This document shows positions 1,259-49,933 of a DNA stretch of 64,000 nt, in pieces. The notes below the pieces were generated by a model. That model had not been told where the DNA came from. It did not search any database and was given only the letters and a program-made list of their open reading frames with translations. The translations under genes and the position numbers were made by a program. Numbering within the stretch: position 1 is the first letter of the stretch; every line of letters starts with the position of its first letter. Origin of the DNA: Carcharhinus longimanus (lineage: Eukaryota); contig JASCQW010000081.1 of the NCBI GenBank assembly GCA_030264375.1, forward strand, positions 35,818,353 through 35,882,352. Direction: 5' to 3'.

Positions 1259-1363
1259 CTGTAATATCAGATTGACATGCAGCATTACTAGTGGCCAACT
1301 CTGAACTGGTACGCTTGCATTGTTTTGATAATGCAGTCAGATTTTGTTGATTAGATTTTTCAT
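1259..1363 (-). CDS. Repeat exon 5 (105 bp, phase 1-1): DEKSNQQNLTALSKQCKRTSSELATSNAACQSDIT
   Basis: Acceptor ttcttaaaacttcaattcttttgtattcag, donor CAG|gtatct, open frame, length divisible by 3, acceptor shared with four other exons. Confidence 0.75.
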
Positions 1364-1754
1364 CTGAATACAAAAGAATTGAAGTTTTAAGAACCTTTGG
1401 TCTGATTTTATTAAGAACTAAAATCAACTTTCTTTGTATATAAAAATTATGATCATATCATGAAAAGGCATACATTTACATTTCAATATTTAAATAAAAT
1501 TCCTTCCTCTAATGTAAATATTTCCAAAGTAATTACATTAGCTTGGGAGGTGGGATGCAATGAAAGAGAGGCATGTAGCAAACATCAGGCCTGAACAAAA
1601 GTCAGTTATGAGAATTAATAAATAACTGAAACAATATCCACGAATGGTCAGGATCCAGAAAAGGCTGAATAATGTTGCTGTTTTCCTGCAGTCAGTGAGG
1701 TCACGCCAGCGTGGTTTACAACAGCTTTATAAAAATGTGAACCTGGTGAGCTCA

Positions 1755-3620
1755 TATTGATGCCACACTCAGTCAAATGCTGTCTTGATGTCAAGAATTA
1801 TCACGCTCCCTTTCTGAACTTCAGTTTTTTTGTCCATATTTGAACCAAAGTATAATGAAGTGAAGAGCTGAATAGGCCTGGCAGAACCTAAACTGAGCAT
1901 TAGTGAGCTGGTTTGTTATTGCCTACTCCTGCTCCTATTTCTTATGTTCTTAAGCAAGTGCTGTTTGATAATATGTTGATGACCCCTTTCATTACTTTAC
2001 TGATGATCTGGAATAGACTGATGGGTTGGTAATTGGCCAGATTGGATTTGTCCTGCTTTTGGAGAACAGGACATTGCCCTGGGTAGATGCCGATGTTGTA
2101 GCTGTATTGGAACATCTTGGCTACAGGCAAGTTCTGGAGCATAACTCTTCAATACTATTACCAGAATACTGTTGGTATCCATAGCCTTTGCAGTATCTAG
2201 TGCATTCTTGATATCATGTGGAGTGAATCAAATGTTTTTACTCATCCATTGGATGTGGACTTTGGCCAGCATTTATTGGTCATCTCCAATAGCCCTTGAG
2301 AAAGTAGTAACGAGCTGCACTCTTGACATGGTGTTGTCAGCAGTATTGCAGCCGTGATACTGGGGATCTGAGGGGCATGCTGAGATGGATTAACCACTCA
2401 CTTGCAAATGCTTCAGCCTTATCTTTTGCACTGATGTGCTTGCCTCCCCCTATTATTGTGGATGGGGATATTTGTGGAGCTTTTGCCTTCATTGAATTTT
2501 TAATTATCCACCATCATTCACGACCAGATCTGGCAGGACTGCAGAGCTGAGAATTGACCTATCAGTTTTGAAATCACTTAGCCTGTTTATTGCTTGCTGT
2601 TTATGCTGTTTGACACAGAAGTAATCCTGTTTTGTACCTTCGCCAGGTTGACACCTCATTTCTAGGTGTGCCTGGGACTGCTTCTGGCATGTTCCCCTGC
2701 ATTCTTCATTGAACCAGGGTTAATTCCCTAGCTCATTGGTAAATGGTTGAGCAGGGTATGCCAGACCATGAGGTTGCAAATTGTGATCAAGTACAATTCT
2801 GCTGCTGCTGATGGCCCACAGCACCTAATGGTTACCTAGTCTCGAATTGCTATATATTTGATATCTATCCTTTTTAGCATGCTAATAGTGCCACACAACA
2901 TGATGAAGGGTATTGTCATTGTGAAGATGGGATTTCATCTCCACAAGGACTGTGTTATGGTCACCCCTACCACTACTGTCATGGGCAGATACATCTGCGG
3001 CAGGCAGGTTGGTGAAGGTGAAGTCAGGATACTTTTCCATCTTGTTGGTTTGCTCACCCATGCCAGACTGAGTCTGAGTCTAGTAGCTATGTTCTTTAAA
3101 ACTTAGCGAACATGATCTGTAGTGGTGCTACCAAGTCATGGTTATGAACATTGAAGTACCCCACCCAGAGTACATTCTGTGCCTTTGCCACCCTTAGTGC
3201 TTTCTCCAAGTGGTATTCAACATGAAGGAATACTGAGCTGTGGGGGAGGGGGTGTAGTCAGCACCATTTTTGACCGAACACCATGAGTCTTCATGGGGTC
3301 TGGAGTTGATGTTGAAGACACTCGCAGCAAGTCCCTCCTGAATGTATTCTACTGTGCTACCACCTCTACTGGGTCTGTCCTGCCAGTGGAATAGGACATA
3401 CTCAGGATTGGTGACAGAAGTGTCTAGGACATTATCTGTAAGGTATGATTCCATGTCAGACTGTTGCTAGGATTGAGTTTGCCGTCGCTTCCGGTGTCTA
3501 GGTTAATGGCAGGTGGTCTGTTCGATTTCATTCCTGTGAGACTTTTTAGCAGTTTGATATGATTGAGTGATTTGCTCAGCCATTTCAGACAGCATTTATG
3601 ATTTAACTCCATTGCTATGG
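1755..3620 (-). mobile_element. Decayed CR1/L2-like LINE ORF2 (endonuclease to start of RT)
   Basis: Fragments ESYLTDNVLDT..WQDRPSRGGST (EN) and LKSYAPELA..KQDKSNLANYQPISLFQIISKVMKGVIN (pre-RT); frameshifted. Confidence 0.8.
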
Positions 3621-4150
3621 GTCTGAAGTCACAAATAGGCCAGTTCAGGTAAGGTCAGCAGATGAACTTCCCCAAAGGATGTTAGTGGACCAAATGGGTT
3701 TTTACAGCAATCAAAAATGGCTTCATAGTCATTATTTGTAATGAAGCACACAGGCTTTGTCAGAAACACAAATGAATTTTTTAATTAGGAAAAAACTGTA
3801 CAGAAGCCAGCAGCTCCTCAACTGCCCTAGAACAGCTCACCAGCAGCCCCAGTCCCTACATCTATTCTAATTTTTCTCCAAGATGCCTTCTGCCTAAGAG
3901 AAGACTCCACCCTCCCGGGTGATTACCCACTCTGTCCCAATTGGTTTCCCCAAGCCACGTGACTCTCTTATGCTTTGTTGCCCTTGAAGGAACAATGACC
4001 ACAATCACCACATCATTTGAGTTTTAAGCCCAGATTTTTACTGAATTCAAATTTCACCATCTGCCATAGTGGTGTTTGAATCCGGGTCCCCAGAGTGTGT
4101 TACCCTGGGTCTCTAGATTACTAGTTCAGGAAGAATAGCGCTATGCCACT
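3545..4150 (-). mobile_element. SINE/LINE-tail repeat interrupted by a solo LTR
   Basis: Same family as 8185-8550 and 17365-17695 (gccatttcaga...ggtctgaagtca...ttcaaatttcaccatctgcc...attactagt). Confidence 0.6.
3737..4012. mobile_element. Candidate solo LTR (~276 bp)
   Basis: TG...CA ends, flanked by ttatt/tcatt (5-bp TSD, 1 mismatch); splits the surrounding SINE. Confidence 0.45.
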
Positions 4151-5599
4151 GCACCTCATGTGTTACAGGGTTATACATGGCAGGAACATTATGGTCCCAC
4201 TTGTGGGAAGGGGAAGAGCAAGGCCTATATGCTCAATGGGTAGCTTGGTGTGCAGGATGCAGTCAGTGTCTCACACTCAGTGAGCTTGGTGGTGGCTGAC
4301 TTGGTACAGGGCTCGAAACAGGTTGGTCATGGTCAGGTGAGATATCTACTGCTGTAAATGAGGAAAATGTAATAAAGGAGATACCCAAAGGGTATGTATG
4401 TGTGTACACACAGGTTTACTAATGTCCTTTAGGGAAGGATATCTCCCATTCTCATCCGATCTGGTCTAAAAGGGGCTCCTGATCCACAGCAAAGTGAATG
4501 ACTTACAACTGCCCTCTGAAATGGCATAACAAACCTCTCAGTTCATGGGCAATTTGGCATGGTTAATATATTATAGCCTTGCCAGTGATATCTTATGAAA
4601 GTGTAAAGGAAAAAGTAGCCTCAAGATGGGGAGAGGTGACGTCCTCATAGGACATGGGAACGTCCACAGTGACTGGTTCAGGGGCAACAGCAGAAATCTT
4701 CGCAACAGTATCAATAGGGGGAGGCTGGAAAATTAATGGATGGAGGCTCACCTATGCATCATGGGGTTCCAGGATAATTGGAGGGACTTGAAGGGTAGCA
4801 GAAGAAGGGTTGAAGTTGATCTGCAAGTAAATGTATAGCACCACCATCTTGAGACCCTGAAGCAATGATGCAGTTTAAAAATGAAACTGTGAAAAAATCT
4901 TCATGTAAGGGGACTGAGATAGTTGAGAAGCAGAACACAACTGAACACAGGGGCCTTTTGAGGGGACAGCCTCATACTTATCAGATTCTCAACATGAAAG
5001 TGAAAGGTTACGTTATAGAACTCATGAGCATCTTATTGAGAACTGAGGTAGGAACCACTCAGTTACGGTGCACTTTGACCCCAGACAGTAACAGTCAATT
5101 GACTCAATTAGAGGTGGCCTCATTGAGCATGTAAACATCAAGAATGTGAAAAGGGAAGTGGCATCAGCCATTAAGGGAGCACAGTTACTAGATATCTGCA
5201 AGATGCTCCATCAAACTCTGTAAAATGCATTGTCTAATCGTCGTCGGTTTGGGACTAAAAGATATCCAGTCATTCAAAAGGTGCATGGTAGGTCTAATTT
5301 CTAATCCAAATCAGACATTGTATTTAGTGTTTGGCTTTGCTTAAGCCTCTTCAATCCTCTACGAACTTGAGATGTCAAGTTGTTGAGGTGGCTTCTTAGG
5401 CACTCACAATCTGTGACAGAGCATCTCAGCTACAAGGTTGCAACAGGGATAAGCAACGAGAGTGCTTCACAGCACGAGAGCATGACAATGGTTTTCTGGC
5501 TAAGAGTGGCAGGTCTTCTAAATTATTCAATTTAAATTCATTGTTGGATCTATCTGTCCACAGGGAGAAGGAGGCTGCTCTCAATGCTGCCTTCTTAAT

Positions 5600-6375
5600 G
5601 GCAGTGTTCAGATTGGGGAGGACAAGGGGCTGGCACCATATAGCACAACTTAGAGAGGATCCCCAACTTGAAGTGCATGGTCCAGAGAAGCCCCAGGTTG
5701 AGAAGTGACTGGCATAAACAAAAGTTTACTGAGATGTCTTTCCTATTTGGACATCAACGAGAGACAATGCTGCACACATCTGCAACTGACAGGAGATGTA
5801 GTGGCTCATATCTGCTACATTCTGTGGGAAGGTATAATGCGGCATGGATTGGGAGGCCACCCTTTGTCTGTATCCCCAAAAGTCACCACTGCACTCAATT
5901 TCTTTGCAAGCAGCTTATTCTAGGGATTCCATGAGGACTTATTTGGCACTTCTTAATACTCCACACATAAATGTATAAAGGAGTTGACCAATGCCCTCTC
6001 CTGTAAGGTTCACTGTTATATAAAGTTCACATTGGATGACAGCAGCCAGGTTGCTAGATTTCTTTGACTTGCGGCAATCTCAGGCTTCTCTTGAGCGCAA
6101 TCAATTGCATACATATTGTTTTAATAGATCCCTGGCACCAGCATCTGATCTTCACTAATGGGAAAGGGTTTCACACTTCAACATTCAATTGGTGTGCAAT
6201 CATTAGAAGCATATCATGCATGTTTGTGCCAAGTACACTGGGAATTCTCTTGACTCCGAAAGGCTGAGTCACTCATAGATGCATAGATATTTGAAGGGCC
6301 ACACAGCGCTTACTGGATTGGCTGCTGAGTGACAAGGGGTATCTGCTGAAAAGATGGTTCATATCACTTGAGCAT
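5600..6375 (+). mobile_element. Decayed Harbinger/PIF (HARBI1-like) transposase
   Basis: LGGHPLSVSPKVTTALNFFAS, AINCIHIVL..FTNGKGFH, WLLSDKGYLL; many stops and frameshifts. Confidence 0.8.
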
Positions 6376-6791
6376 TGTCTTCAAAGTGGGATGCAATCTG
6401 TAGCAAAGGAAATTAAGTCAGTCAGCAAACCAGATGAATGCAGAAATACAGTAGGTTCAGCTCTGTTCCAGTGAAGCTTGCTTTCGGTACTGCTAATATC
6501 AATGGGAAGAATGTTGGTGCCATAAACTCTTGATTATTTTCATCTCAACAAATCATTACAGTGCCAAATTTTCACTCAATTCTACCATTTTCCAAGAGTC
6601 TCAATTGGCATCAGACTAGTAAATTAGTTTCTAATTTCTAGTTTCTAAAAAACAATATGTTTTTATATCACTTTGTTTCAAAGCAACTGATTTTGATGCA
6701 GACCAAACAATTTGACATGAAATATAATTTGTGACACTGAAGAAATATTTTTAGCAGATAATTCAATGCTTTCTCATAAGCAAGTTAGTAC

Positions 6792-6908
6792 CTGGGCAAT
6801 CAGAGCGACACGGAGCAGGATCTTTGTTGGTCAATGAACATATGCTTCTATGTTTTGAGGGAGAAGACATAATATGGCATCCTTCTATCGGAGAACTCAA
6901 TTTATTAT
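6792..6908 (-). CDS. Repeat exon 4 (117 bp, phase 1-1): DNKLSSPIEGCHIMSSPSKHRSICSLTNKDPAPCRSDCP
   Basis: Acceptor ttcttaaacattccattcttttgtgttcag, donor CAG|gtacta, open frame, clear peptide similarity to exon 7969-8088. Confidence 0.8.
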
Positions 6909-7494
6909 CTGAACACAAAAGAATGGAATGTTTAAGAAACAGCATGAGCGTTCTGCAGGCTTTTAGAGAAGATATAGTCTGAACTTTGCACTTCAGGTGT
7001 TAAGTGAAAGTGGATTTTCAAATGCCCAAGCACCTCCCACCTGTTGTAACTGCTGTGAAAACAACACCTTTTTGAAGCCCATGCTTTGTTTGCATTCAGT
7101 GGTGAGCTGCACTTGTCTAAACAGAACTCTGAAACAGCTTCCAGCTGCAGAGCTGGCAGACAGTCAGAGTTCAATGAAATGTGGGAAGGATGTGAGGAGG
7201 CAATATTAAGGATAGCTTTGCACACAATGGATTATTTGTGTGAAGTCCATCAAAGCATTCTATCTCCTTTTGGCCCCACAGAAAGAAATACTAAAAATTG
7301 CTTTGGACAGTGTTTTGAATAGCCTGCAGCACTCCTTTAAGATTGCTGAAAATGTCATTCATATTACTACAAGTAGGTGCAGAGTATGCAAGACCCTGTC
7401 ATTGGACTCTAATTTGTCTGAAAACAGACAGCGGCTGTGTCTCACACTCCCAAGTCCCTGTCCAAGATAGTGATGGCTTGGCTCTGCACCACCA

Positions 7495-7850
7495 ACTCTT
7501 TTGTAATTTAATCGCTCCTGCCTTCACCATATCGCAGACCTTCCCTTCTGTTCTTTTTTGAATCCTCCCCTCTACATTTGCTTAAAATCTATTATATTTC
7601 TAAATTTTCGCAGTTCTGATGAAAGAATGTCAACATCCACCTGAAATATTGGCTGGAATTGTCCACTTTTGCACACTTTGATACCACTGTCAGCAAGAAT
7701 GGAGAATTTCGCGCTCAGCCAAATTGCCATTCACTGCAGCCATTGGGAGAATCCCAGTTGTGGGCAAGGTCAGAGAATGCCACCTGTTAATTCTGTTTTT
7801 CATTCTACAGATTCTGCCTAAGCTGCTGATTTTTCCAGAATTTTTTTTAT
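7495..7850 (+). mobile_element. Penelope-like terminal repeat fragment with nested MITE (~7650-7785)
   Basis: ctgatgaaag...gaaa motif then cagattctgcctaagctgctgatttttccag tail; the MITE resembles 17863-17999. Confidence 0.5.
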
Positions 7851-7968
7851 TAAATCGATATCTTGCTCTTCTCGATGAAAAATTGACAGTGAGATAAAAC
7901 TTATGATAGTAAATAAATATTATCACGAAGAACTTGAAATTCTGAGTTTTTTATAAATAAGTGAATAC

Positions 7969-8088
7969 CTGGGCAATTGGACTGTGAGGGTGCAGAACCT
8001 TTGTCTATCAATGAGCATACATTTCCGTCACTGTTTGAGAGAGTATTCCTACTATGGCAACTTCCTACTGGAGAATCCAATCTATCAT
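7969..8088 (-). CDS. Repeat exon 3 (120 bp, phase 1-1): DDRLDSPVGSCHSRNTLSNSDGNVCSLIDKGSAPSQSNCP
   Basis: Acceptor ttcttaaaactacaattcttctgtattcag, donor CAG|gtattc, open frame. Confidence 0.8.
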
Positions 8089-8184
8089 CTGAATACAGAA
8101 GAATTGTAGTTTTAAGAAACATACATGATTCGATTGCACTCATGATCAGTTTTTTTCTCTTGTTTCTATTCACATTGGTTATGA

Positions 8185-8550
8185 GCATCGCTGACAAGGC
8201 CCATTCCTAATTACCCTTAAGAAGGAGGTGGTGACCCATCTCCTTGCTTACAACTATGAATGGCTTGCTGGGCTACTTCAAAGGACATGCAAGAGTCAAT
8301 CACGTTGCTGTGGTTCTGTTGTCAAATATCAGCCAGACCGAATAAAGTCAGCAGATTTCTTTCTGATAGGTATTTATAACAATCCAATAGTTTAATCATC
8401 CTGATTACAGGTACCCACTTTTAATTTCAGATTTTGTTAATTAACTGAATTTTAAATTCCCCAGGTGCCATGTTAGAATTTGAAGTCATGTATGTAGATC
8501 ATTTGTTAAGCATCCAAAATACTGGCTCAGTAATACAACCATTATGCTTG
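8185..8550 (-). mobile_element. SINE/LINE-tail repeat
   Basis: Similar to 3545-4150 and 17365-17695. Confidence 0.55.
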
Positions 8551-8569
8551 AAACATATCTCCCTATGTG

Positions 8570-10610
8570 ATATATATGTTTCATTCTTGGGATGTGTGCA
8601 ACACTGCTAACAAGAGAGAATCTAATCATTTTATCTTGACATTTAACATCCCCAAACCCCCAACATCAACATTACTCTTAAGTCTTAACTGGACCAGCCA
8701 TATAAATACTTTGATCCAACAGCAATCAAAGGCTTGGGATTCTGCAACGAGTAACTCACCTCCTGACTCATCTATCATTTACAAGTCCAAGGGTATGTTG
8801 GAACATCTCCATTTAGCTGGAACTGTGACACTATAATAAATAACTAAAAGCTTGGCACTCTCCAAGTCAAAACAGCTCACATGATCGGCACCCCATCTAC
8901 CATCTTAAACATTCACTCCTTCTACCTTTAGTGCAGTGACAGTAGTATTACTATCTCCAAAAGTATGGCAATAACTTGTCAAGGTTTTATCATCAGCACC
9001 TGTCAAACAACTGAACTCTACCAAATAGAAGAGCAAAGGCACCAGATGCCTAGTAAAAAGTGTTTGTCCATTCCTAGTTGAACTTGCTAAGCCACCTGCT
9101 CAAGGTAATGTGGTGTGGGTATCAAATGTTGGGATGATACATGACTTGAAGGAAAACTTTAAGGTGGGAGTGTTCCCAGGCATCTGATGCCCGTGTTCTG
9201 GCTGGTAGAGGAGTGCCAGGGTATTGCATGGGCATGCTGCTCTCCCCTTGAAGGCTGTACTCAGTGTGTAGCTTTTGTGATTCACGTCAGCGTGCAATGA
9301 ACATTCCAGCATGGGGGGACTGTCAGCATAAAAGTCAGCTCTGCTTTGGTAATTAATTGAGATCCCCATTATGTCATTTGCAGGGGCAATCCATTGAAGT
9401 TACATTTTGGGATTCCTGATTGATTCTCTGCTATGATTCCCCACCCTACCCGCCTCCCGATTGCTCTTGTAGTTACTGTATTCATATGTATAGTCCAGTT
9501 AAGACTTTGGAGAGTGGTAGCACCCATGATGTTAACAGTGGGGAATTTGGCGATGTTGAATGCCAAGAAAAAATGATAAGAATCCCTCCTGTTAGAGATG
9601 GTCATTAGCATGGCACAAATGCTAATTGTCATTTATCACAACTAAATGTTGCTCAGATCTTGTTAAACAAGGGCATAGGCTGATTCTGTATATGATGAGT
9701 GTAAATAACACTGTGCATTCATCAGGAATCATCTCCATTTCTGACCTCATGTTGGAGGGAAAGACATTGATGAAGCTGCTGAAGATGGTTTAATCTAGGA
9801 CACTACCTTGGGTAAAAGATGCAGTGATATCCTGGGGTTGAGATGGTTGGCCACACCCATTTTCCTTTGTCCAGGTATGACACCAACCAGTGGAGAGTTC
9901 TTCCCTTGACTGCTATTTAATTTTTCTCGGGGTCCTTGATGTCACACTTTGATCAAATATTGCCTTGATACCAAGGACAGTCACTCTCACCTCATCTCTT
10001 TATTGCAGCTTTTTTGTCCATGTTGAACCAAGGCTATATTAATGTTCACGGCCATATAGGCCTAGGAGAACCCAAACTGTGCATCCATGAGCAGGTTATT
10101 ACTAAGCAAGTTCAGTTTGATAACATTGCCAATGAAACATTCTATCACTTTGCTTATGATTGAGAGTGGACTGATGAGACAATAATAGGCCGGATTGAAT
10201 TTTTCCTACTTTTTGTGGACAGGACATAGCTGCCAATTTTCCAGTGTTATATCTTTACTGCAACGGCTTGGCTAATGGAGCACAGCTAGTTCTTGAGCAA
10301 CTGGCTTCAATATTACAACTGAGAAGTTGTCAGAGCTCATGATCTTTGCTCTATCCAGCACCTTCAGGTACTTCCCAATATAACATGGAGTAAATCAAAT
10401 TGTCTGAAGACTGACATCTGTGATGGTGGGGTCTGCAGGAAGAAACCAAGATAGATCTTCCATTTGGCTCTTCTGGTTGAGGATGGTTGTAAATAATTGA
10501 ACCTTGTCTTTTCTACTGCTGTTCTGGATTCCACTATCATTTAGCATAGGAATGTTTTTGAAACCTCTTCCTCCACCATTCATGACTAAATGTGGCACAA
10601 CAGCAGAGCT
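8570..10610. mobile_element. CR1/L2-like LINE RT fragments in both orientations (+ 8570-9050; - ~9470-10610)
   Basis: SLNWTSHINT / SLNWTIHMNTV and NIPMLNDSG..KDKVQLFTTILNQK; same family as 1755-3620. Confidence 0.7.
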
Positions 10611-11866
10611 TTGATTGATTCATCAGTTGTGGGATCACATAACTCTAAGAATTATGTTCCAGTGTTTATTTTAAGAACATGCCATTAAGTCCAGGGGAAT
10701 AAACAAGTTTCTGGCCGAAGCTGGGTTGGGTATGCAGAGTCGAGAGACTTCCCAACTTGGCAAATCTCACCTTTAAAAATGTTCACTTGCAGATTGGCTT
10801 TTTGGTTNNNNNNNNNNTTCTTGATAATGGGCAGGGCTGAAATACAAATCGGGCAAGTGAGCTCATAAGTGAAGATGGTTTGGAAGCAGACCAAGTGTGG
10901 ATTGCAAGACTTGGGCACATATATAAAGTGCTCTGTAGGTGTTGTTGGTGAATGCAGCATGTCCACAGCCTTGGAGAAGGTGTGGATTTGTTGGGGTGTT
11001 CAGAGGTGTGTCAAAGCTGTAAATGTTATCCAACTGTCAGATAATCCAAGGATAGATGGTCCATCAAGGACTTTCCCAATTTGGATTTATCATTGATGCC
11101 ACCTATTAAAAATGTGCTAAACGAAACCAGTGAGTGAATTTCCAAGACACAGACAAGAAGGTGGCATTGTCTTGACACCACAATGTGACGCGGATAAGAT
11201 TAAGTGAGTTATTAAGCTGGTTAGACTCAGTTGATGAAGGAACAACATCGATACGCTTATCGATATCCCATCCACTTTCTATCACCACTCATCTCTCGGA
11301 ATGCACCCATATTGCAGACCCTGATAGGTCCCTCATATTTGCAGTGTGGTGGCATAACAATCTGAATAAGATGGGAGTAAACCATTAGGATTGTCAGTGG
11401 TCTTGAAACACAGCATGTCATTTTGTACTGGCAGCCACAACATTCACAGCACCAAGTGTATGTTCAGAGATGTTCTTTCTCAACCACACCGTTGAGAGTA
11501 TTCATAGTTGAGGTGACGTCCATGGTTAGTGCAAGAATAGCAATGTATTTTGAGTTGTTCATGAGCCTTCTCACCATACATTTTCATTAAATGACTTATT
11601 AATTCACAGAATGTAGCACAGACCAGGTTCCCCTTAAGGATGCAGGTGATGGCTTGAGCTCAGTTTGGAAACCTGGGGTAGGATTTTTATTCCTTTCCAC
11701 TGTGTGTTTTGTAGTGGTGCAAGGTATCCTGCCGTTCATTGGTGGTGGGATCTATGGTTCCGCTGTCGTTAACAGGTTTTTCCGTTAAACGCACCCCTTG
11801 CCTTCGGGAAACCCGCCATGGGGATGAGCCATCAGCAGGACTATAAGATCCTGCAGGCATGAATGG

Positions 11867-12107
11867 CAGCAAGATTTTGGTGTGGATGTGCCGGCGTTGG
11901 ACTGGGGTAAACACAGTAAAAAGTCTGACAACACCAGGTTTTAGTCCAACCGATNNNNNNNNNNNNNNNNNNNNNNNNNNNNNNNNNNNNNNNNNNNNNN
12001 NNNNNNNNNNNNNNNNNNNNNNNNNNNNNNNNNNNNNNNNNNNNNNNNNNNNNNAATCGGTTGGACTAAAACCTGGTGTTGTCAGACTTTTTACAGCAAG
12101 ATTTTGG
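11867..12107. mobile_element. Penelope-derived inverted-repeat insertion (family A) with 14-bp TSD, at the edge of a MITE (~11676-11880)
   Basis: TSD cagcaagattttgg at 11867-11880 and 12094-12107; arms aaaaagtctgacaacaccaggttttagtccaaccgat and its reverse complement lie either side of a gap. Confidence 0.7.
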
Positions 12108-12809
12108 GGCAGAGTTCATGTGAGAGGATACAAACTCAAGGCTTTGTCTAGCTTGAAGCTGGAGAAAGAAATCCATAGTGGCCTTTACAGAGAACAGCAA
12201 GCCAGCAGTCATTCAGATTGGAACAGACAAAGAGAAGGTCTCTGTTGAGAGCTCAAAATCAACTGTGGGACTAGCAGCTGAGGAATCAGGAGTGTTCCTG
12301 ATGTTTAATTCAATAAGCAGGAAGGAAGTGAAGGCCTGGCTTGAACTGAAGTGTCCACAGTCATGAGATGTTTGAAGAAAATTAAAAATTCACATAGCCA
12401 TAAGCTAAATTCTGAAAATTAATATCTTGAAGAATACCTGGGTCACTGAGTAGAAATGTAACTGAATTCCAAAAGGCTGTGGCATATCTTTGAGATGATC
12501 CCAGAAGAAGTGAATTAATCTCCCAGATTTTAAAACATATAAGATAATTTTTGTGGGGCATATCACAAGAAGAACTGAGTTTTTAGCATATGTCTTTATA
12601 AATTAAAATCTTAAATGAGTGGTACTTGCTTTGTTTAATTTCTTTTTAAGTACAATAAAATTTGTTTTTGCTTAGAAACATAAAATTCTGTGGTGTACTA
12701 CTGACAGTGAATGACGGGATGCTCAGATTTCTCTTTGAACATTGACTGTTGCTGAACAGGGTGGTAACAATGTGATGGACTGCCTCTGCATTCCTATATG
12801 AATGTAAAA

Positions 12810-13060
12810 TATCAGTGTTTATTGCAAGGGGAATCCTGTGTAAAAGTAGGGAAGTATTGCTGTAATTGTACAGGAACTTAGACCACATCTGGAATATTGT
12901 ATACAGTTTTGTCTCTTTACTAACGAAAGGATGTAAGTGCATTCAGGGCAATTCAGAGACTGTTCAGTCATCTGATTCCTGGGATGAAGAGATTAGCTTA
13001 TGAGGAAAGGTTGAGCAGAGTTTAGATGAATGAGATGTGATCTTAATGAAACATGTAAAA
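12810..13060 (+). mobile_element. CR1 3' fragment
   Basis: REVLL*LYRNL..PHLEYCIQF-like region of the CR1 ORF2 C-terminus. Confidence 0.6.
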
Positions 13061-13099
13061 TTTAAGAGCAAAAGCAAAATACAGTGGATGATGGAAATC

Positions 13100-15510
13100 C
13101 GAGACTGACTTTCAGGTTAGCATATGGGGAGGACGGTTCAACTGCATGGAAAGTTATGAAAATATTTAAAAAGGAGAACTCAGGAAATGTTATTAATGGA
13201 GGTATTATGATTCAAAAGGAAGGTATAAAAACTAACATAAGGGTGCTTTACCTAAATGCTCATAGCATTCGAAACAAGGTAAATGAGTTGACGGCACAAA
13301 TCATCGTGAATGATTATGATTTAGTGGACATTACAGAGACATGGTTGTAGGGTGGTCATAACTGGGAGTTACATATCCAGGGTTATCAGACTATTCAGAA
13401 GGACAGACAGGAAAATAAGGGAGTTGGTGTAGCTCTGATATTTAAGGGTGACATCAGGGCGGTAGTGAGAGACGATATAGGTTCAATGGAGAAAAAGGTT
13501 GAATCCATTTGGGTGGAAATTAGAAATAGTAAGGAGAAAAAGTCACTGATAGGCATAATCTATTGGCCACCAAGTAATAACATCACGATGAGATGGGCAG
13601 TAAACAAAGAAATAACTGATGCATGTAAAAATAGCACGGCAATTATCATAGGAGATTTTAATCTTCATGTCGATTGGTCAAACTAGATTGCTCAAGGCAG
13701 CCTTGAGGAGGAACTCATAGGATGTATCTCTGATAGTTTCCTCGAACACTATGTAATGGAACCTACGAGGGAGCAAGTTATGCTAGGTCTGGACCTGTGT
13801 AATAAGACACGAATAATTAATAATTAATGTTAGGGAAGGAGTGATCATAGTATGGTTGAATTTAAAGAACAGATGGGGAGAAGGCAAAATCCAATACCAG
13901 TGTCTTGTCCTTAAACAAAGGAGACTACAATGGGATAAAGGAGGAGTTGGCTAAGGTAGACTGGAAGCAAAAACTTTACAGTGAGACAATTTAGGAAGAC
14001 TGGAGGAGTTTCAAAGCGATTTTTCACAGTGCTCAGCATAAGTATATACCAATGAAAAGGAAGGGATGTAGGAAAAGGGATAATCAGCCTTGGATATCTA
14101 CAGAAATAAAGGAGGGTATCAAGTTGTAGAATAATGCTTACAAAGTGACAAAGATTAATGGGAAACTAGATGATTGGGAAATCTTTAAAGGTCAACAGAA
14201 AGCCACAAGAAAAGCTATAAAGAAAAGTAAGATAGATTATGAGATAAACTAGCTCAGAATGTACAAACAGATAACAAAGGCTTCTACAAATATTTAAAAC
14301 AAAAACATGTGGCAAAACATTGGTCCTTCAGAGGATGAGAAGGGGGATTCAATATTGGAAAATGAGGAAATGGCGGAGACATTGAACAGATATTTTGTGT
14401 TGGTCTTCACAGTGGAAGACACAATTAACATGCAACAAATTGCTGATAAGGAGGCTATGGCCAGTGAGGACCTAGAAACGATCATTATCACTAAAGAGGT
14501 AGTGTTGGACAAGTCAATGGGGATAAAGGTAAACAAGTCTTCTGGCCTGATGGAATGCATCCCAGGGCATTAAAAGAGATGGCAGGGAAAATAGCAAATG
14601 TGACGCCACTGTTTAAAAAAGGATGTAGCTAAAAGGCAAGTAATTATAGGCTGGTTAGCTTAAATTCGGCAGTGGGGGAAATACTGGAGTCTATCATCAA
14701 GGAACAAATAGTGAATCATTTGGATAGGAATTGTCCCATTGGGCAGCAGCATGGGTTCATGAAAGGCAAGTCATGTTTAACTAAACTATTGCAATTCTTT
14801 GAGGATATTATGTGTGCGGTAAACAATGGGAACTGGTGGATGTGATGTATATAGATTTGCAGAAGGCATTCAACAAGGTGCCGCACAAAAGGTTGCTGCA
14901 TTAGATAAAGGTGCACGGCATTATAGGTAATGTATTAGCATGGATAAAGGATTGGTTAACTAACAGAAAGCAACGAGTGGGGATGAATGGGTGTCTTTCT
15001 GGTTGGCGATCAGTGACTAGTAGTGTTCCTCAGGGAACACTAGTGTTAGGACCACAATTGTTTGCAATTTACATAGATGATTTGAAGTTGGGGACCAAGT
15101 GTTGTGTGTCAAAGTTCACAAATGACACAAGGATAAGTGGTAGAGCAAAGTGCGCAGAGGACACTTTAAGTCTGCAGGAATATAGAGAGTTTAAGTTAGT
15201 GGGCAAGGGTTTGAAAGAGGAAGGACAATGTTGGTAAATGTGAGGTCATCCATTTGTAGGAATAACAGCAAAATGAACTATTATTTAAATGCTAAAAAAT
15301 TGCAGCAGCTGCTGTGCAGGGGGACCCAGGTGTCCTTGTGCATGAATCGTAAAAAGTTGGTTTGCAGATGCAGCAGGTACTTAAGAAGGCAAATGGAATT
15401 TTGTCCTTCAATGCTGGAGGACTGGAGTTTAAAAATAGGGAGTTTATGTTGTAACTGTATAAGGTGTTGGTGACACCACACCTGGAGTACAGTGTACAGA
15501 TTTGGTCATT
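13100..15510 (+). mobile_element. CR1 LINE ORF2 (endonuclease + RT), inactivated
   Basis: VLYLNAHSIRNKVNEL..DITETWL, ESIWVEIRN..GDFNLHVDW, WIKDWLTNRKQRVG..SVPQGT.VLGPQLFAIYIDDL; stops and frameshifts. Confidence 0.92.
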
Positions 15511-15624
15511 AGTCTGTGAAATACTCTTTCTGTTGTTTTGGACAAATTAACTAAATTAAAGACGAATCACAGTTTTCCATGGCACTCCATAACAGTTTGG
15601 GGCAAAGTAAGGAGGGAAGATTGT

Positions 15625-15920
15625 TAAAGATCAAAGCTTTGACAAAGAGTCACCTGGACTTGAAACGTCAGCTCTTTTCTCTCCTTACAGATGCTGCCAG
15701 ACCTGCTGCGATTTTCCAGCANNNNNNNNNNNNNNNNNNNNNNNNNNNNNNNNNNNNNNNNNNNNNNNNNNNNNNNNNNNNNNNNNNNNNNNNNNNNNNN
15801 NNNNNNNNNNNNNNNNNNNNNTTTTCTCTCCTTACAGATGCTGCCAGACCTGCTGCGATTTTCCAGCATTTTCTCTTTTGGTTTCAGATTCCAGCATCTG
15901 CAGTAATCTGTTTTTATTTT
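15625..15920 (+). mobile_element. Penelope-derived terminal repeat (family B) with degenerate hammerhead core
   Basis: AGCT TTGACAA A GAGTC acctg GACTT GAAA CG TC AGCT at 15635-15673, then cagatgctgccagacctgctg...cagattccagcatctgcag tail. Confidence 0.65.
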
Positions 15921-16439
15921 GAAGATTACTCACTGTTTACAATATAAACACTGTGTGTGTGTATTACAATGTATTTGAAGCCCAAATTGGGGCTGACTGA
16001 CAAAACTGGGAACAGTCTGGTTCAATTTGAAATTGTGGAGTTATCTTTTCCTTGATTGATGTAGAACAAACCAGTGGTGCAAGGTCTGGCCGGTCACTCA
16101 TATGGCTAAAATGTCTGGCAGATTTTAATATCCAGACTTTATTACATTTATTTGCAGAATGACATTTTATTAGATGCATTGACGGGCAGCCTGATCAATT
16201 AGGAGGTAGGACTTCCACTTGAGACCACAGTTTTGAAAGACAGAATGGAACTTGTACAGTTGTGTTGAGAAAAGTCTTGCCTGCTACTTTGATATAAACT
16301 TTTATTGTTTCTTGGGCATATAGGTTTTTATGTTTATCTCTGTGATTTCTCTGTGTTTGTTCTGTGGCCCTCAGAAATGTGTCAGTTTCCCCACTTGCTT
16401 GCAGTATCTGAAAAATGTTCAGGACAAGAGCTGCATACT

Positions 16440-16650
16440 TCAATGCTATTGTGGTGGGATGCTGGTGGAGCAGGTACAGCACAGGAGGTTAGTCCTCTTC
16501 CCAAAAGACAGAACCAGAATGCAAAACACACCCAATGCCAAACCTGGATGGAGGTTGCAGAAGTGATAAATATCCATAACATTACCCAAAGAAATGTCTT
16601 CAGTGTAGAAACTGGTTCAATGACATGTCCAGGACAATACAGGTGGGAGG
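16440..16650 (+). mobile_element. Harbinger Myb/SANT-like exon remnant
   Basis: MLVEQVQHRRLVLFPK..WMEVAEVIN resembles the Myb exons at 28813 and 30452. Confidence 0.5.
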
Positions 16651-17057
16651 TTTCTCTGGTTTCACATGTGCCAAATATTTCCATTGTAGTTTTTGTCTGT
16701 GTATGATTCTCTCTTCTCCCTCTGATGTCCTGTGGTCATTTTGATCAATAAAACCAGCTAGACATCAAGCACATCAATAGTTAATTAAGGTTTTTCACAC
16801 TGTAGCCAGGAGGTACAGGAATGCTTGGTGAGCCTGACAATGACGATCTGTATGTCTGCTGCCATGGACTCTCTCTTTCCCATGTGTATGTAGAATCCTG
16901 GAGAACCTCCCTTCCACCACAGATTACTTGAGTGTTGGTGGTCAATTTCTGGGATGTCTGGTCTTTGTCTGCCAACCAGCTGTCTCTTCATGCAATTTTG
17001 GGTGGGTAGTTGACTGACAGAACATTAATGAGGCTCAGGCATTAAAACTGACCAGGC

Positions 17058-17320
17058 TGCCAATGGGTAACAAAAACAGAAAATACTGGAAAATCTCAGC
17101 AGGTCTGACAGCATCTGTGGGGAGAAAATAGAGCCAACGTTTTGACTCTAGAGGACCCTTCGTCAGAGCTAGACCCTTGATGAAGGGTCACCTANNNNNN
17201 NNNNNNNNNNNNNATTCTCTCTCCACAGATGCTGTCAGACCTGCTGAGATTTTCCAGCATTTTCTGTTTTTGTTTTAGATTCCAGCATCTGCAGCATTTT
17301 ACTTTTATGCCAATGGGTAA
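17058..17320. mobile_element. Penelope-derived inverted-repeat insertion (family B) with 13-bp TSD
   Basis: TSD tgccaatgggtaa at 17058-17070 and 17308-17320; inverted arms; CTGACGAAGGGTC core on the minus strand. Confidence 0.75.
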
Positions 17321-17364
17321 TGCAGGGTGGGAAGTTTTCTTTATTTATTCATGGATGTTATGGT

Positions 17365-17695
17365 AAAGGCTAGCATTTATTGCCCATCCCTAATTGACTA
17401 ACTGAGTCACTTGCTAAGCCATTTCAGTGGGCAGTTAGGTGCCAACCACATTACTGTTGGTCTGAAGTCAATGTAGGGCAGACTTGGGTAAGGACAGCTG
17501 GCTTCCTTCCCAAGGACAACAGTGACACAGGTGGATCTTTATGACCATACACAGATTCCATGGTCATGATTACCAATACTAGCTTTTTATTCCATATTTA
17601 TTTTATTAATTTAAATTCCTAGTTGTCATAATGATTAAATCTGTATCGATCAATCTGGGTTACTAGTTTAGGAAAATAACCCTTATGCCATAGTA
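17365..17695 (-). mobile_element. SINE/LINE-tail repeat
   Basis: gcatttattgcccatccctaattg...gccatttcag...ggtctgaagtca family. Confidence 0.55.
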
Positions 17696-17862
17696 TCCAA
17701 AATAAAGTGGCTCCCTTGCTTTTTCACCAGAAGTTAAAAAGTAATTAAAATCCAAACTGAATTAATTGATATTAACAAAATAATAATTCTTGCAATCATG
17801 AAACCCTTTTAAATTTAGTCTTACAATTTAGAATTCAGTAAGATCAACTAAAGCTAATTATG

Positions 17863-17999
17863 GGCTGGAATTCTCCAGTCTCGTACATCCCCACTGCTAC
17901 TGCCAGCGAGAACAAGGAATTTGGTGCTCAGCCACATCTCCATTCATTGCAGAGGGACTGGAGAATCCCAGCAGCAGGCGAGGTCAGAGAATTCTGGCC
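17863..17999. mobile_element. Harbinger-type MITE (137 bp)
   Basis: TIR GGCTGGAATTCTC / GAGAATTCTGGCC with 3-bp TSD ATG. Confidence 0.7.
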
Positions 18000-18041
18000 A
18001 TGGTGTTTTTAGATAGAAAGAAAGAAATAAAGAATGAGTAC

Positions 18042-18155
18042 CTTGCTGACTGAATTCACAGGGTGCATTAATTTCCTGCACCTTTGGACTTCTGTCATTT
18101 TTTGAGACTTCAGTCATAGACCGTTTACTTTGTGTTGGAGAGATTGATCTAATAT
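18042..18155 (-). CDS. Repeat exon 2 (114 bp, phase 1-1): DIRSISPTQSKRSMTEVSKNDRSPKVQEINAPCEFSQQ
   Basis: Acceptor ttttaaaactacaattcttctgtctttag, donor AAG|gtactc, open frame; absent from the ORF track. Confidence 0.75.
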
Positions 18156-18479
18156 CTAAAGACAGAAGAATTGTAGTTTTAAAAAATGTATTTTGCCAGA
18201 AACATATGTTTTAAGAAGCATTCACTGTATTGCATTTTCAGTGAAAGAAATATATAACTAACACGCAAAAAATTATTTTCACAGAAAAATTACAAACTGC
18301 TTGTAAATTTCTCAAATCTCTGTGTTAATGGTTTGGCCCAATAAAGGAAGGGACAATAAAAGTTAGCAAGAGAAAATATTAATGACAAAGAAATAAAATG
18401 AAGGTAAAATATGCGTACAAATTGACAGAGATAAAAGAGAAAGTATCAACAGGAATCAACTAAAATTATGTCCAATTCT

Positions 18480-19100
18480 GAGTACTACACTCTCTAAAGG
18501 ACATCAAGGCTTGAACTGAGTGCAAAGGAGATTTACCAGAATGATATCAATGATAAGGAACACTTCAGTTATATGCAATGACGGAAAATGTCTTTACTCA
18601 GAGGGTAGTAAGGGCGTGGAATGCCCTGCCTGCAGCAGTTGTGGACTCGCCAACTTTAAGGGCGTTNNNNNNNNNNNNNNNNNNNNNNNNNNNNNNNNNN
18701 NNNNNNNNNNNNNNNNNNNNNNNNNNNNNNNNNNNNNNNNNNNNNNNNNNNNNNNNNNNNNNNNNNTTAGATTGGTTCCACTGGTTGGCGCAACATCGAG
18801 GGCCGAAGGGCCTGTACTGCGCTGTAATGTTCTATGTTCTAAGCTGTGGGTGTGACTACACCAAGTGGATAGTATCAGTGCCAGTAGGCATCTCCCTGCC
18901 ATCTTCTCATGGATAATCAGAGATGGGCAACAAATGCTGGTCCTTCCATCAATGCTCACATCTGGTGAGAATTGTTCTCCTTAGACCTTAGAAGGTTATG
19001 GGGAGTTTCAATGGAGGTGCTCAAAATTACAAGGGATTTTAATAAGTAGAGAGAAACTGTTTCCAGTGGCAGATGTGCCAGTAAACAGGTGATACATATT
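18480..19100 (+). mobile_element. CR1 3' fragments (nested)
   Basis: VQRRFTRMI; FTQRVVRAWNALP; tail ggccgaagggcctgtactgcgctgtaatgttctatgttct. Confidence 0.7.
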
Positions 19101-19125
19101 TAAGATAACTAGTAAAAAAGTGTAC

Positions 19126-19239
19126 CTGAGCAATTGAATTGACATAGTAAATTATTTTTATCCACCAGAGAACACCAATCGTTTTTTGAGGTTGTGGTTA
19201 TTGCCCCTGGCATTTCTACTGAGGAGTCTTGTTTGCTAT
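19126..19239 (-). CDS. Repeat exon 1 (114 bp, phase 1-1): xSKQDSSVEMPGAITTTSKNDWCSLVDKNNLLCQFNCS
   Basis: Acceptor attaaaactacaattcttttgtgttcag, donor CAG|gtacac, open frame, CSLxDK and C-x3-C motifs shared with exons 3 and 4. Confidence 0.8.
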
Positions 19240-19924
19240 CTGAACACAAAAGAATTGTAGTTTTAATAAATAAAAATATAAATATTTCAAGTGTATTCTT
19301 CATCATTTTTCTCTCAATTCATAATCTAAATCTCTATAATCTTTGGGGCTATATCCAAATAAACAGAGAAGAAATCAATTTTAAATTGCACCTTACATGA
19401 CTGAAGAACATTTCAAAGTCATGAACGTTGTGAACCTAGCATGGTGGACCCTGAGGGAGTTCAAGGAGTTAAGTGTAGTACCCATCTGCCCCCTCTGCCA
19501 CTACCAGGCTGCAGAGGGAGGCTCTCCCAAGGGTTCTGGGGGTTGGGTAGGTTAGGGCTAGGGGCAAAGGGTTGACCTCAGCACTCTACCCTGGGGCAGG
19601 AGCCTTGTGACTAGATTGCCCCTTCTCAAGACCTGGAAACTTGAACATCACTCTTGGCATGGTGATTTCAGGCATCTCTCTGACCAAAGTCTTTGTTCTG
19701 ATATGTGTATTTGTGTACTGTGAAAACCTGGACACCTGGCAGGCTTCCAAATCACAGCACCAATTAATTCTGCAGAAGGCATTTCTGTTTTCTCTCTGAG
19801 CTGCAGGTGTGAGAATACTCCTTTCAAGTCCTTTGCCTGACTGGAAAAGTTACTTACATTGGGGCAAGCGGAATCCCATTCTCCACAGCTGCTCACTCAG
19901 CTGCACTCCATTTTTAAAGACTGC

Positions 19925-21073
19925 AGAGGCGATTTTCCCAAAAAAGTTCAGTGCTGCATTTGTGGGAAATTGGTGTAAACCATGATTGTTTCTTCATAGG
20001 AGTTCAGACTTGAATTTCCCACACTCCGTGCAATGCAGAGTTCACAATCATGAATGTCATTTAAAGCCCGGGGTGGGGTGGGGCATATCCATGACAAAGT
20101 CTGATAGTTTGGGCCTCTGCGCATGCGCAGTGGCCCCGTACTGTCAGCCTGCAGTCTGCTGGCCAGCTTGATCACTGACCAGCCCAGGACTCCACAATGC
20201 TGCCCCTCCACACCCCCTGTGGCCGATCGCGGTTCCCACGAGCATTTCCAGGCCGGCTCCAGCCATCCCTCCTCATCCAGGAGCACCCTGATCTCCAGCA
20301 CTCCCCTCCACCCCCCAGCAGTGACGNNNNNNNNNNNNNNNNNNNNNNNNNNNNNNNNNNNNNNNNNNNNNNNNNNNNNNNNNNNNNNNNNNNNNNNNNN
20401 NNNNNNNNNNNNNNNNNNNNNNNNNNNNNNNNNNNNNNNNNNNNNNNNGCCCCAATCACTGGCCTCCCTCTAGCCCTGACTGATCCCAATGGCAGAGTGG
20501 CAGTGGGACCCCCCCACCTCCACCAATAGCACCTTAGCTCTGTCCCATAGGCCCTGCCCCCCTTGGCACTGTCTGATGCCCAGTGGCAGTGCCATGGTGC
20601 CTCCTGGGCATGGGCACTTTGCCCCTTGGGCAGTGCCAGGGGCATAGGCTGTCATTGTCAGAGTGCCTATGCCCAGGGGCATCAACCCTCACCGCCCGAC
20701 CCACTGGGGGGGCCCCGATTGCCCCCCTTTCACACCAGCAGTGTCTCCTGCTAGATCCTTGAAAGTGGGGAGCTACTCTAAACCCTGCCAGACTGAACTT
20801 GTATTGATGGGGTGGGAGATGCTATCAGGCCCAGAGAATTTAGTCCCAGGCCCAATAATGATACGTAAATTACATTAAAATAAGATTAAAATAACTTACC
20901 TGCTGGCCCCGCCTGTTTCCAGTGTGGTCCCAGCCTCGATGGATATCCGTCGCTGGGAGATTGTCGCATGTGCTGGAGGAACGCACATGCGAATCCTGCA
21001 AATTGGCGCACATGCAATTCTCCCAGCCGCTCACACTAATAAAATTGCGCATTGGGATGGGAGAATTGCCCCC
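19925..21073. mobile_element. Non-autonomous Harbinger element (~1.15 kb, GC-rich)
   Basis: Imperfect TIR GGCGATTTTCCCA / TGGGAGAATTGCC; internal gcgcatgcgc and ttggcactgcc..ggcagtgcca motifs shared with 61620-62645. Confidence 0.7.
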
Positions 21074-21289
21074 TGCATGCATTGCTATGAACTTTCTGAG
21101 AAAGCACAACTCTTGAAAATCCTTTGAAGTTGTTTGAATGTAATTTGTGGGTTTGAAGCCCGATTCAAAGTCCTTCTGCCAGCTGTCCAGGGGGTATGGA
21201 GATTAAAGTGACCAACCCACTTCAAAGTACAGAGACCAGAATGAAGACTTTGATCAGAGATCTACCTGGAATCGTCATGCCAAATGAGG

Positions 21290-21620
21290 TACATAGAAAC
21301 CTCCATATCTCATATCCCCTGATCCTTCAGCCCCAAGAATTATACCTAATTACTTCTTGAAATCAGACAATGTTTTGACCTCAACTACATACTGTGCTAG
21401 TGAATTCCACACATTCACCACCCTCTGGGTGAAGAAATTTCTCCTCACCTCAGTTCTAAAAGGTTTACCCCTTTTCCTCAAAATACGATCCCTAGTTCCA
21501 AACTCACCCATCATTGGGAACATTCTTTCTGAATCTACCCTGTCTAATGCTGTTAGAATTTTAGAAGTTTCTATAAGATCCCCTCTCACACTTCTGAACT
21601 CCAGTGAATATAACCCTAAT
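21290..21620 (-). mobile_element. CR1 3' fragment
   Basis: LGLYSLEFRSVRGDLIET..FRTEVRRNFFTQRVVNVWNSL. Confidence 0.85.
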
Positions 21621-23581: not shown

Positions 23582-23656
23582 AACTTGCTTTTCTTGAATG
23601 GATTGTTGAGGAGTCAACTAGGATGTCGGCCACAAAACCAAAGACTGCTGAGACTT

Positions 23657-43160: not shown

Positions 43161-43169
43161 GCGTTATGC

Positions 43170-43780: not shown

Positions 43781-43789
43781 GACCCATGA

Positions 43790-49849: not shown

Positions 49850-49933
49850 CTGGACATGGGGAGAGGTTGATGGCATTTGACGAACATTTTCTTCCGCACT
49901 GTTGTTTCACATTAGATATTTTCTGCTGTGTCT
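49850..49933 (-). CDS. Candidate exon (84 bp, phase 1-1): ETQQKISNVKQQCGRKCSSNAINLSPCP
   Basis: Acceptor aatctctcttatag, donor CAG|gtactc (same style as the repeat exons), open frame, ends CP like exons 3 and 4. Confidence 0.5.

Follow-up and report, generated by a model that had tools for sequence, protein, structure and literature searches.

Six phase 1-1 exons on the minus strand of a 64,000-nucleotide stretch of Carcharhinus longimanus DNA (hereafter, the window) form the central part of a single protein-coding gene, which extends beyond both window ends (Table 1). The gene probably encodes the orthologue of a shark protein with one epidermal growth factor (EGF) domain and one transmembrane (TM) helix, in which the exon-built repeats would form a cytoplasmic tail acting as a spacer of variable length.

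Table 1. Repeat exons of the window gene and their matches in other sharks
Exon	Position	Strand	Length (bp)	Phase	Matching model and residues	Identity	Remark
E0	49850..49933	-	84	1-1			28 aa; module type expanded by rays and skates
E1	19126..19239	-	114	1-1	Heterodontus X1 175-213	69%	
E2	18042..18155	-	114	1-1	Heterodontus X1 214-251	55%	
E3	7969..8088	-	120	1-1	Heterodontus X6 174-219	67%	
E4	6792..6908	-	117	1-1	S. canicula X1 294-334	68%	
E5	1259..1363	-	105	1-1	S. canicula X1 333-369	70%	also Heterodontus X1 332-368, 62%

The sequence-only reading of this DNA had described an array of five exons, E1–E5. All five are real, their coordinates and lengths (114, 114, 120, 117 and 105 bp) are correct, each starts AG|AT and ends AG|GT, and each is open solely in the frame that gives phase 1-1. 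The chance that all five would be stop-free is 3.6e-6 by base shuffles, or 4.4e-8 when multiplied by (1/3)^4 for lengths, both figures treating the copies as independent. One more phase 1-1 exon, E0, belongs to this gene and had been overlooked. It is bounded by AG..GT, it is the tblastn match to a 28-aa segment that is found in Heptranchias X2 and missing from X4, and it is the best match of an HMM built from batoid segments alone (E 0.0012 among 2706 six-frame segments). A six-frame search of the window with an E1–E5 HMM gave no further module copy, the next match being E0 itself (E 0.08). Sixteen N-gaps in the window could conceal another. The acceptor regions of E1–E5 have about 28 nt in common. 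With a weight matrix trained on these five, they themselves score 43–47 bits and no other site exceeds 14.7 bits, a gap that shows only that a close sixth copy is absent. A generic splice-site scan based on approximate site frequencies was too noisy, placing one of the five known exons among its top 71 minus-strand rows, and an Rfam search returned 0 matches.

The window gene is likely to be the orthologue of S. canicula LOC119964595 and H. francisci XP_067892503, a set that also includes H. perlo XP_067845791 and, among batoids, L. erinacea LOC129700943, A. radiata LOC116977805 and M. hypostoma LOC134354888. The six window exons match the modules of the LOC119964595 group in order at 55–70% identity, one-to-one for E1–E5 in Heterodontus and for E0–E5 in Scyliorhinus. 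Each is nearest to the module at the same position in other species (mean z of 13–16 within E1–E5 classes, 1–10 between), and the proposal of a host gene whose repeat region was built by exon duplication is borne out by these orthologous proteins, whose modules are the same and are arranged alike. Searched against 1.84 billion proteins, a five-exon profile gave three matches, of which the best two (E 6e-27 and 7e-15) are shark EGF–TM proteins; the third, P0003 (E 9e-5), is an ENA protein that carries a 25-aa repeat of its own and was set aside as probably due to chance. All 15 matches of a homologue search came from sharks or rays, and orthologous proteins were found in the annotations or contigs of ten species. 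For the EGF, TM and C-terminal exons, tblastn gave no match in the window, and they lie beyond it. Because two Logan contigs of 2.8–2.9 kb encode an 893-aa skate protein, the skate orthologue is spliced and transcribed. The gene is undescribed, though annotated without a name in RefSeq models, and its architecture is already known; literature searches, one of them by six LOC identifiers, with supplementary tables outside the search, found no paper on it, a tenascin article being the sole return.

Pairwise z-scores were used for the relationships among modules, because the module tree is based on few columns and only 6 of its 28 branches are starred (upstream 'U' segments excluded). E3 and E4 are sisters (z 9.0–9.4; 72% DNA identity), followed by E1 with E2 (6.2–6.7) and E1 with E3 (6.0–6.6). 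The two-exon duplication unit proposed earlier would require E1 to pair with E3 and E2 with E4; the intron lengths, 970 and 1060 nt, confirm the spacing that suggested it, but the unit is unsupported because the adjacent E3 and E4 are sisters and E2 and E4 are not (z = 2.1). E5 is the most divergent of E1–E5; like E0, it is weakly related to E1–E4 at the protein level, and it has the common acceptor sequence. Very likely, the array was extended as single phase 1-1 exons were duplicated together with their splice signals, and these exons would be alternative cassettes in C. longimanus too. The consensus first drawn up, D..SP....CSLxDK..P C...CP, fits E3 and E4, E1 in part, and E2 and E5 poorly. 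Serine, at about 20% of the region, justifies half of the description 'Ser/Cys-rich'; cysteine is merely about 6%. None of the five modules has a Pfam match at E<=10.

Alternative inclusion of modules was followed in computed RefSeq and UniRef isoform models, in which combinations of distant exons may not be real molecules; the RefSeq models here presumably rest on RNA-seq junctions. Whole modules are dropped exactly at exon boundaries in RefSeq models of the horn shark, sawshark and sevengill shark: relative to X1, whole-module deletions occur in 5/9 Heterodontus, 3/6 Pristiophorus (E1–E5 only) and 3/4 Heptranchias isoforms (E0–E5). E1 is skipped alone in Heterodontus X3, E3 alone in Heterodontus X4 and E4 alone in Pristiophorus X2; E1 and E2 are skipped together in Heterodontus X6, and E5 is skipped along with its neighbours in Heterodontus X8, Pristiophorus X6 and Heptranchias X5. 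The expectation that any module could be skipped in frame is therefore matched by models of three sharks, but not for every module, as none of the compared isoforms skips E2 alone or E5 alone. The six alternative S. canicula models contain no whole-module skip. X2 and X3 of that species lack the first 7 or 8 residues of E3, and X4 the first 8 of E4; in the window, E3 has internal in-frame AG acceptors at +21 and +24, and E4 has an in-frame AG at +24.

The module set turns over between lineages. The window species and Scyliorhinus have E0–E5, Heterodontus models are without E0, Pristiophorus models have E1 twice and no E2 counterpart, and Heptranchias has E0, three copies of E3, and E5, its X1 model being without an E2 counterpart. 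Batoids have about 4–11 E0-type segments, and the E1–E5 HMM has no match to proteins of 4/4 batoids. The E1–E5 type is thus the one expanded in sharks, and the E0 type the one expanded instead in rays and skates. Identity between Heterodontus and other sharks is 56–63% in the repeats, 72–84% in the EGF–TM part and 79% in the C-terminal exon; against batoids, the same regions give 18–21%, 44–65% and 57–62%. Modules of S. canicula, the species without a whole-module skip in its alternative models, group with those of the window in three of six cases. The gene offers a clean natural example of the birth, death and replacement of an exon array.

The orthologous proteins share a layout of short N-terminus, EGF domain, stalk of about 6 residues, hydrophobic segment, repeats and conserved C-terminal part. 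There is one EGF domain per protein, with six cysteines, and one hydrophobic stretch, followed by a Cys/basic cluster; beyond the TM helix, the predicted tail has 250–800 Ser-rich residues. Pfam EGF scores above the cut-off in 5/6 proteins, the exception being Narcine X1; the domain is lost in Narcine models and so is not universal in the gene. Shark orthologues lack a signal peptide or hydrophobic N-terminus. Lysine and arginine residues after and before the hydrophobic stretch number 7:1, 8:1 and 6:2 in three sharks. In all likelihood, the EGF domain is outside the cell and the tail in the cytosol, and therefore the modules would be cytoplasmic. In AlphaFold predictions, the TM helix is the sole confident element, with pLDDT of 26–32 over the repeats from a shallow 6-sequence alignment; this is a weak sign of disorder, because pLDDT from that alignment is low over the EGF domain as well. 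Large hydrophobic residues make up 16% of the repeats.

Copy number and the frames of relatives were compared for E3 and E4. Both exons have single-copy depth (10.7 in X1), next to an intronic repeat with a depth of 15,000–31,000. In the related organisms B and C, both frames are open, with no stop among the variants listed. Eight changed sites are among those variants, a small count: six are non-synonymous and two synonymous, against 70:28 expected without selection. The lone exonic indel listed is a 3-nt deletion in E4 of organism B, and 5/7 of the indels listed outside the two exons are not multiples of three. E3 and E4 keep their frames while their amino acids change at about the neutral rate in these two close relatives. 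The sequence-only reading had been prepared to yield to a dispersed, high-copy transposable element with broken frames; a transposon origin was rejected, as E3 and E4 are single-copy and open in B and C.

On balance, we lean towards reading the modules as a spacer and linker that is disordered, rich in serine and prone to phosphorylation. Frame, splice sites and composition would be under selection, but not the exact sequence, and splicing would determine how far the conserved C-terminal motifs lie from the membrane. Against this, a pure spacer would not need module identities to be kept by position, and these are kept at 55–70% identity across shark orders. That observation suits a reading in which each module is a specific unit (a docking motif, kinase substrate or Cys/His metal site) and splicing changes the partners, in the manner of calpastatin or MAP2. 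SP, SL.DK and C...CP elements do recur, and what the isoform models leave out is a selected set of modules, not the whole array. Yet a single residue is invariant among the five exon peptides, cysteine positions are not kept among modules (those of Heptranchias contain 3% Cys), the whole array is replaced in batoids and changes between close relatives look neutral, which makes specific units unlikely.

The EGF domain has Cys spacing 4-5-11-1-8. ErbB ligands have seven residues between Cys1 and Cys2, and their conserved arginine sits before Cys6. That an arginine is conserved in ErbB ligands is stated in PMC2132487. Among 13 EGF domains, taken from this gene and from the paralogue, four residues separate Cys1 and Cys2 in 13/13 and arginine precedes the sixth Cys in 0/13. 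The best PDB sequence matches are Notch-type repeats (Notch1, DLL/DLK), with Notch1 at E 0.0015, spitz at 0.13 and EGF at 0.5. The O-fucose-type consensus C-xxxx-T-C is present in 5/5 shark domains and absent from 3/3 batoid and 5/5 paralogue domains. Notch ligands of the DSL family have DSL/MNNL domains and several EGFs, whereas this gene has a single EGF and, by Pfam, neither domain. The EGF probably binds a cell-surface partner and is probably not an ErbB ligand.

A divergent neuregulin/EGF precursor, NRG4-like without a signal peptide, shed and ErbB-binding, with a neuregulin-like tail, is accordingly a very unlikely identity. A six-Cys EGF in a transmembrane precursor is common to ErbB ligands and this gene, the single EGF adjoining one TM helix resembles pro-neuregulin-4-type ligands and tomoregulin-like proteins, and the long spliced tail fits. 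ESM Atlas neighbours of residues 1–130 point the same way ('Tomoregulin-1-like', 0.91; pro-neuregulin-4 clusters, 0.89 and 0.88, scores under 0.9 being leads only). The Notch-type Cys spacing, the missing arginine, the PDB ranking and the Pfam results, which list no neuregulin family, speak against it. Tomoregulin/TMEFF proteins have a signal peptide and follistatin/Kazal domains; that identity was rejected, since no Kazal or follistatin match was found and the shark N-terminus is not hydrophobic.

A paralogue (C. maximus LOC144692374, S. tigrinum LOC125456528, R. longicauda LOC144598407) has the same EGF, TM helix and basic juxtamembrane segment (91 columns, probability 98.7, identical Cys spacing). 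It differs in having a hydrophobic N-terminus and an extra domain of about 110 aa before the EGF, which may resemble FN3; its tail matches neither module HMM. It is probably the next gene downstream, because Pristiophorus models read through into it. Its AlphaFold model has low confidence (mean pLDDT 42.5), and Foldseek with that model gave nothing at E<=0.001; the best ESM Atlas score, 0.78, is uninformative.

The paralogue bears on a highly improbable reading in which the topology is reversed or incomplete and the repeats form an extracellular, glycosylated, mucin-like stalk in the style of CD44 variant exons. Extracellular modules are typically encoded by phase 1-1 exons, the Ser/Thr-rich repeat region contains 2–5 N-x-S/T sites, and no signal peptide fixes the orientation. 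However, the six-Cys EGF, which needs an oxidising compartment, lies across the helix from the repeats, basic residues follow the helix and the same EGF–TM unit in the paralogue is preceded by a hydrophobic N-terminus. That the exons are non-functional transposon fragments or dead-gene remnants in C. longimanus is scarcely credible: near-neutral change in E3 and E4 and the position of the EGF, TM and last exons outside the window would allow it, but the single-copy depth of E3 and E4, the intact frames and splice sites of all six exons and the orthologues in ten species tell against it.

The finding points to a pair of shark and ray surface proteins without a name. A broader history seems quite unlikely: an elasmobranch-restricted EGF–TM pair in which one protein, after losing both signal peptide and N-terminal domain, acquired a combinatorially spliced cytoplasmic tail, with different seed exons amplified independently in sharks and rays at the same gene site and modules evolving at a neutral or faster rate. 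If it were true and expression were restricted to gonad or immune tissue, this would make the protein a lineage-specific recognition molecule, with signalling or anchoring tuned by tail length. Unless a role in gamete or immune recognition is shown, the value lies in the comparative biology of cartilaginous fishes, because building disordered regions from duplicated symmetric exons is an established principle and RefSeq already has models of the gene.

Regions of the calpastatin and MAP2 kind are among the closest known systems. There, tandem duplicated, symmetric, alternatively spliced exons encode predicted disorder, and the window exons resemble them in being symmetric, of one phase and paralogous to each other. 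No sequence relation to these regions was found in a comparison through Pfam only. Unlike them, the array described here makes up a membrane protein's tail, and its modules have been turned over between the shark and ray lineages.

The five segments of the array are a real feature with correct exon calls, and their host gene is identified. As the sequence-only reading had placed them, five minus-strand exons (numbered along transcription, from E1 at 19239 to E5 at 1363) begin AG|AT, end AG|GT and have lengths divisible by three, and phase 1-1, the symmetric class proposed for them, is the sole open register in each. In base shuffles, the chance of five open frames is 3.6e-6; requiring the lengths as well lowers it to 4.4e-8. 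The exons have in common an acceptor sequence of ~28 nt and can be aligned with one another as DNA and as protein; the module consensus proposed earlier is a good description of E3 and E4 and a poor one of E2 and E5. A sixth exon, E0, was added. No match to further exons of the host gene was found in the window, which places its EGF, transmembrane (TM) and last exons beyond the window ends. At several gaps, the flanking sequence is duplicated or inverted, which has the look of an assembly artefact.

Exons and other elements located in the window
Feature	Position	Strand	Remarks
E0	49933-49850	minus	84 bp, phase 1-1; 30.6 kb upstream of E1
E1	19126-19239	minus	114 bp
E2	18042-18155	minus	114 bp
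E3	7969-8088	minus	120 bp
E4	6792-6908	minus	117 bp
E5	1259-1363	minus	105 bp
Very high-copy short-element fragment	7664-7775, 17856-17992		summed contig depth up to 31,000 vs 10.7 in unique DNA
Short repeat family	11878-12097, 24925-25273, 31908-32284, 34316-34458		internal inverted arms; often beside 100-N gaps
LINE-like fragment	13351-15500	plus	endonuclease match 13351-13683, below Pfam cut-off
Presumed LINE-like fragments	21350-21688, 26206-26625, 53690-54166		
PIF/Harbinger-like element	28800-35300		DDE_Tnp_4 fragment at 33510-33944
Tandem duplication, ~1.65 kb	28900-31900		78-87% identity; adjoins DDE_Tnp_4 fragment 33510-33944
Degraded LTR-retrotransposon pol fragments	40669-45059	minus	two separate stretches; RT, RNase H, integrase zinc finger
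Second DDE_Tnp_4 fragment	55074-55517		

A profile of the five peptides had 3 matches among 1.84 billion proteins. One was discarded as chance; the other two, both strong, belong to Heptranchias perlo and Heterodontus francisci and are uncharacterised proteins with an N-terminal EGF domain followed by a hydrophobic segment. E1–E5 are collinear with residues 176-366 of Heterodontus X1 and E0–E5 with Scyliorhinus residues 168-369, and window E2, E3 and E5 cluster with S. canicula modules, without strong support, pointing to a galeomorph shark as the probable source. The host gene is already annotated, yet unnamed, and no papers on it were found in a literature search of main texts, mostly from outside subscription journals. 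With the Heterodontus protein as the query (targets of 320-1021 aa, best 8000 candidates), all 15 matches came from sharks, rays or skates; with its residues 1-175 (targets of 30-361 aa, 47 candidates), all 3 came from sharks. Because these searches covered targets of up to 1021 aa and required shared 5-residue words, the matches do not establish absence from bony vertebrates or chimaeras. In carpet sharks and lamnids, an unnamed EGF–TM paralogue was found and no host-gene model.

Ordered orthologous modules and paralogy among E1–E4 support the proposal of a repeat region grown by exon duplication. The duplication unit suggested earlier, two exons, predicts that E1 pairs with E3 and E2 with E4. 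Among window modules, the highest shuffle z-score is that of E3-E4 (9.0-9.4), followed by E1-E2 (6.2-6.7), E1-E3 (6.0-6.6) and E1-E4 (5.8-5.9), with E2-E4 at only 2.1; at the DNA level, E3 and E4 share 72% identity, and their match continues into the downstream intron (243 columns, 70%). On these sequence comparisons, the two-exon unit is rejected in favour of single-exon tandem duplication, which fits better. The introns that follow E2 and E3 share a 135-nt match, which was ruled out as common ancestry, being a high-copy repeat (depth 15,000-31,000). Single exons were also duplicated later: E1 occurs twice in Pristiophorus and E3 three times in Heptranchias. An E1–E5 HMM had no match in any of four batoids, which carry about 4-11 segments with an S-P-C-P-like end (rough split); an HMM of 29 batoid segments alone has window E0 as its top match (E 0.0012) and also matches Heptranchias E0 (1e-6). 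Together, these results indicate that sharks and batoids each amplified a different seed exon at the same position in the gene.

In-frame skipping of modules, which the sequence-only reading had considered possible for any of them, was scored against each species' own X1 model, all isoforms compared being computed models; it is seen in three sharks and in none of six alternative S. canicula models. Modules are missing from five of nine Heterodontus isoforms (X3, E1; X4, E3; X6, E1+E2; X7, E3+E4; X8, E3-E5), the rest differing by 8 aa, the EGF exon or the C-terminus; from three of six in Pristiophorus (X2, E4; X5, E3+E4; X6, E3-E5), the rest lacking E6, the EGF exon or residues 16-173; and from three of four in Heptranchias (E3a; E0+E3a; E5+E6), the fourth lacking E6. 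The deletion edges coincide with the exon boundaries first proposed, and we take these models to be supported by RNA-seq junctions. In three S. canicula models, E3 or E4 is shorter by its first 7 or 8 residues, and the window offers in-frame AG sites at +21/+24 in E3 and at +24 in E4. Two Logan contigs (2,903 and 2,839 nt) encode an 893-aa skate protein, so a spliced transcript exists in that lineage. The EGF exon is itself skipped in frame in two shark isoform models (P0019, Heterodontus X5; P0041, Pristiophorus X4), and Narcine models (P0058) have no EGF domain, which leaves a TM-anchored tail.

E3 and E4, both single-copy, were compared over 6600-8250 with contigs from organisms B and C (contig sources X3 and X5 being a single sample, and X1 perhaps the window's own source). 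Among the 40 of 52 variants listed, eight exonic sites changed, six non-synonymously and two synonymously, with no stop (70:28 expected without selection, by our own transition weighting); the only indel within an exon is 3 nt, five of seven outside the exons are of frame-shifting size, and none of the listed variants touches the AG or GT. On a longer time scale, no part of the protein evolves faster than the repeats. These small numbers point to selection acting on frame more than on sequence.

The shark proteins lack a hydrophobic N-terminus; their single hydrophobic segment (about 57-92) precedes a cluster of Cys and basic residues, and the positive-inside rule and the six-Cys EGF in front make it likely that the EGF lies outside and the tail inside. 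In AlphaFold, only the TM helix is confident; the conserved C-terminal part shows hints of strands and of one short helix. For this part, identity is 79% between the Heterodontus and Scyliorhinus proteins, both of which end in E-T-D-V, presumably resembling a class I PDZ-binding end; identity to batoids is 57-62%, and the batoid proteins end in E-T-E-A, -D-D or -D-G. The modules would form a disordered, phosphorylatable spacer, of a length set by splicing, from the membrane to the conserved C-terminal motifs; the main rival is module-specific binding. Skate orthologues (P0048 504-629, P0070) carry an extra intra-exon tandem repeat of ~10 residues, Cys/Asp/Pro-rich, in about 10 copies, partly missing from one isoform model.

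The closest relative is the unnamed elasmobranch paralogue, which lies outside the window (P0039/P0010 residues ~402-end; P0073-P0077). Ahead of its EGF and TM segments, it has a hydrophobic N-terminus and an additional conserved domain of ~110 aa that matches nothing in Pfam; in three species, its tail carries a K-N-V-R-F motif that we take to be like a PP1-binding RVxF site. Its probable place is directly downstream of the host gene, since Pristiophorus models read through from the one into the other.

In all 13 EGF domains of host gene and paralogue, the Cys spacing is 4-5-11-1-8 and the Arg before Cys6 is absent. PDB sequence matches weakly favour Notch1 repeats; the O-fucose consensus applied to the EGF domains was C-xxxx-T-C. 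ESM Atlas neighbours are small EGF–TM proteins labelled tomoregulin-like and pro-neuregulin-4. According to PMC2132487, members of the EGF growth-factor family are recognised by one arginine, two glycines and the spacing of their cysteines, and PMC4914847 describes ligand EGF motifs as variable apart from such marks. The host gene shares with ErbB ligands the layout of an EGF–TM precursor without a signal peptide, but falls outside them in tests of membership. The exon array is probably one instance of a pattern described in PMC3632108, in which symmetric exons duplicated in tandem give rise to disordered regions; calpastatin and MAP2 are its examples of class 1,1.
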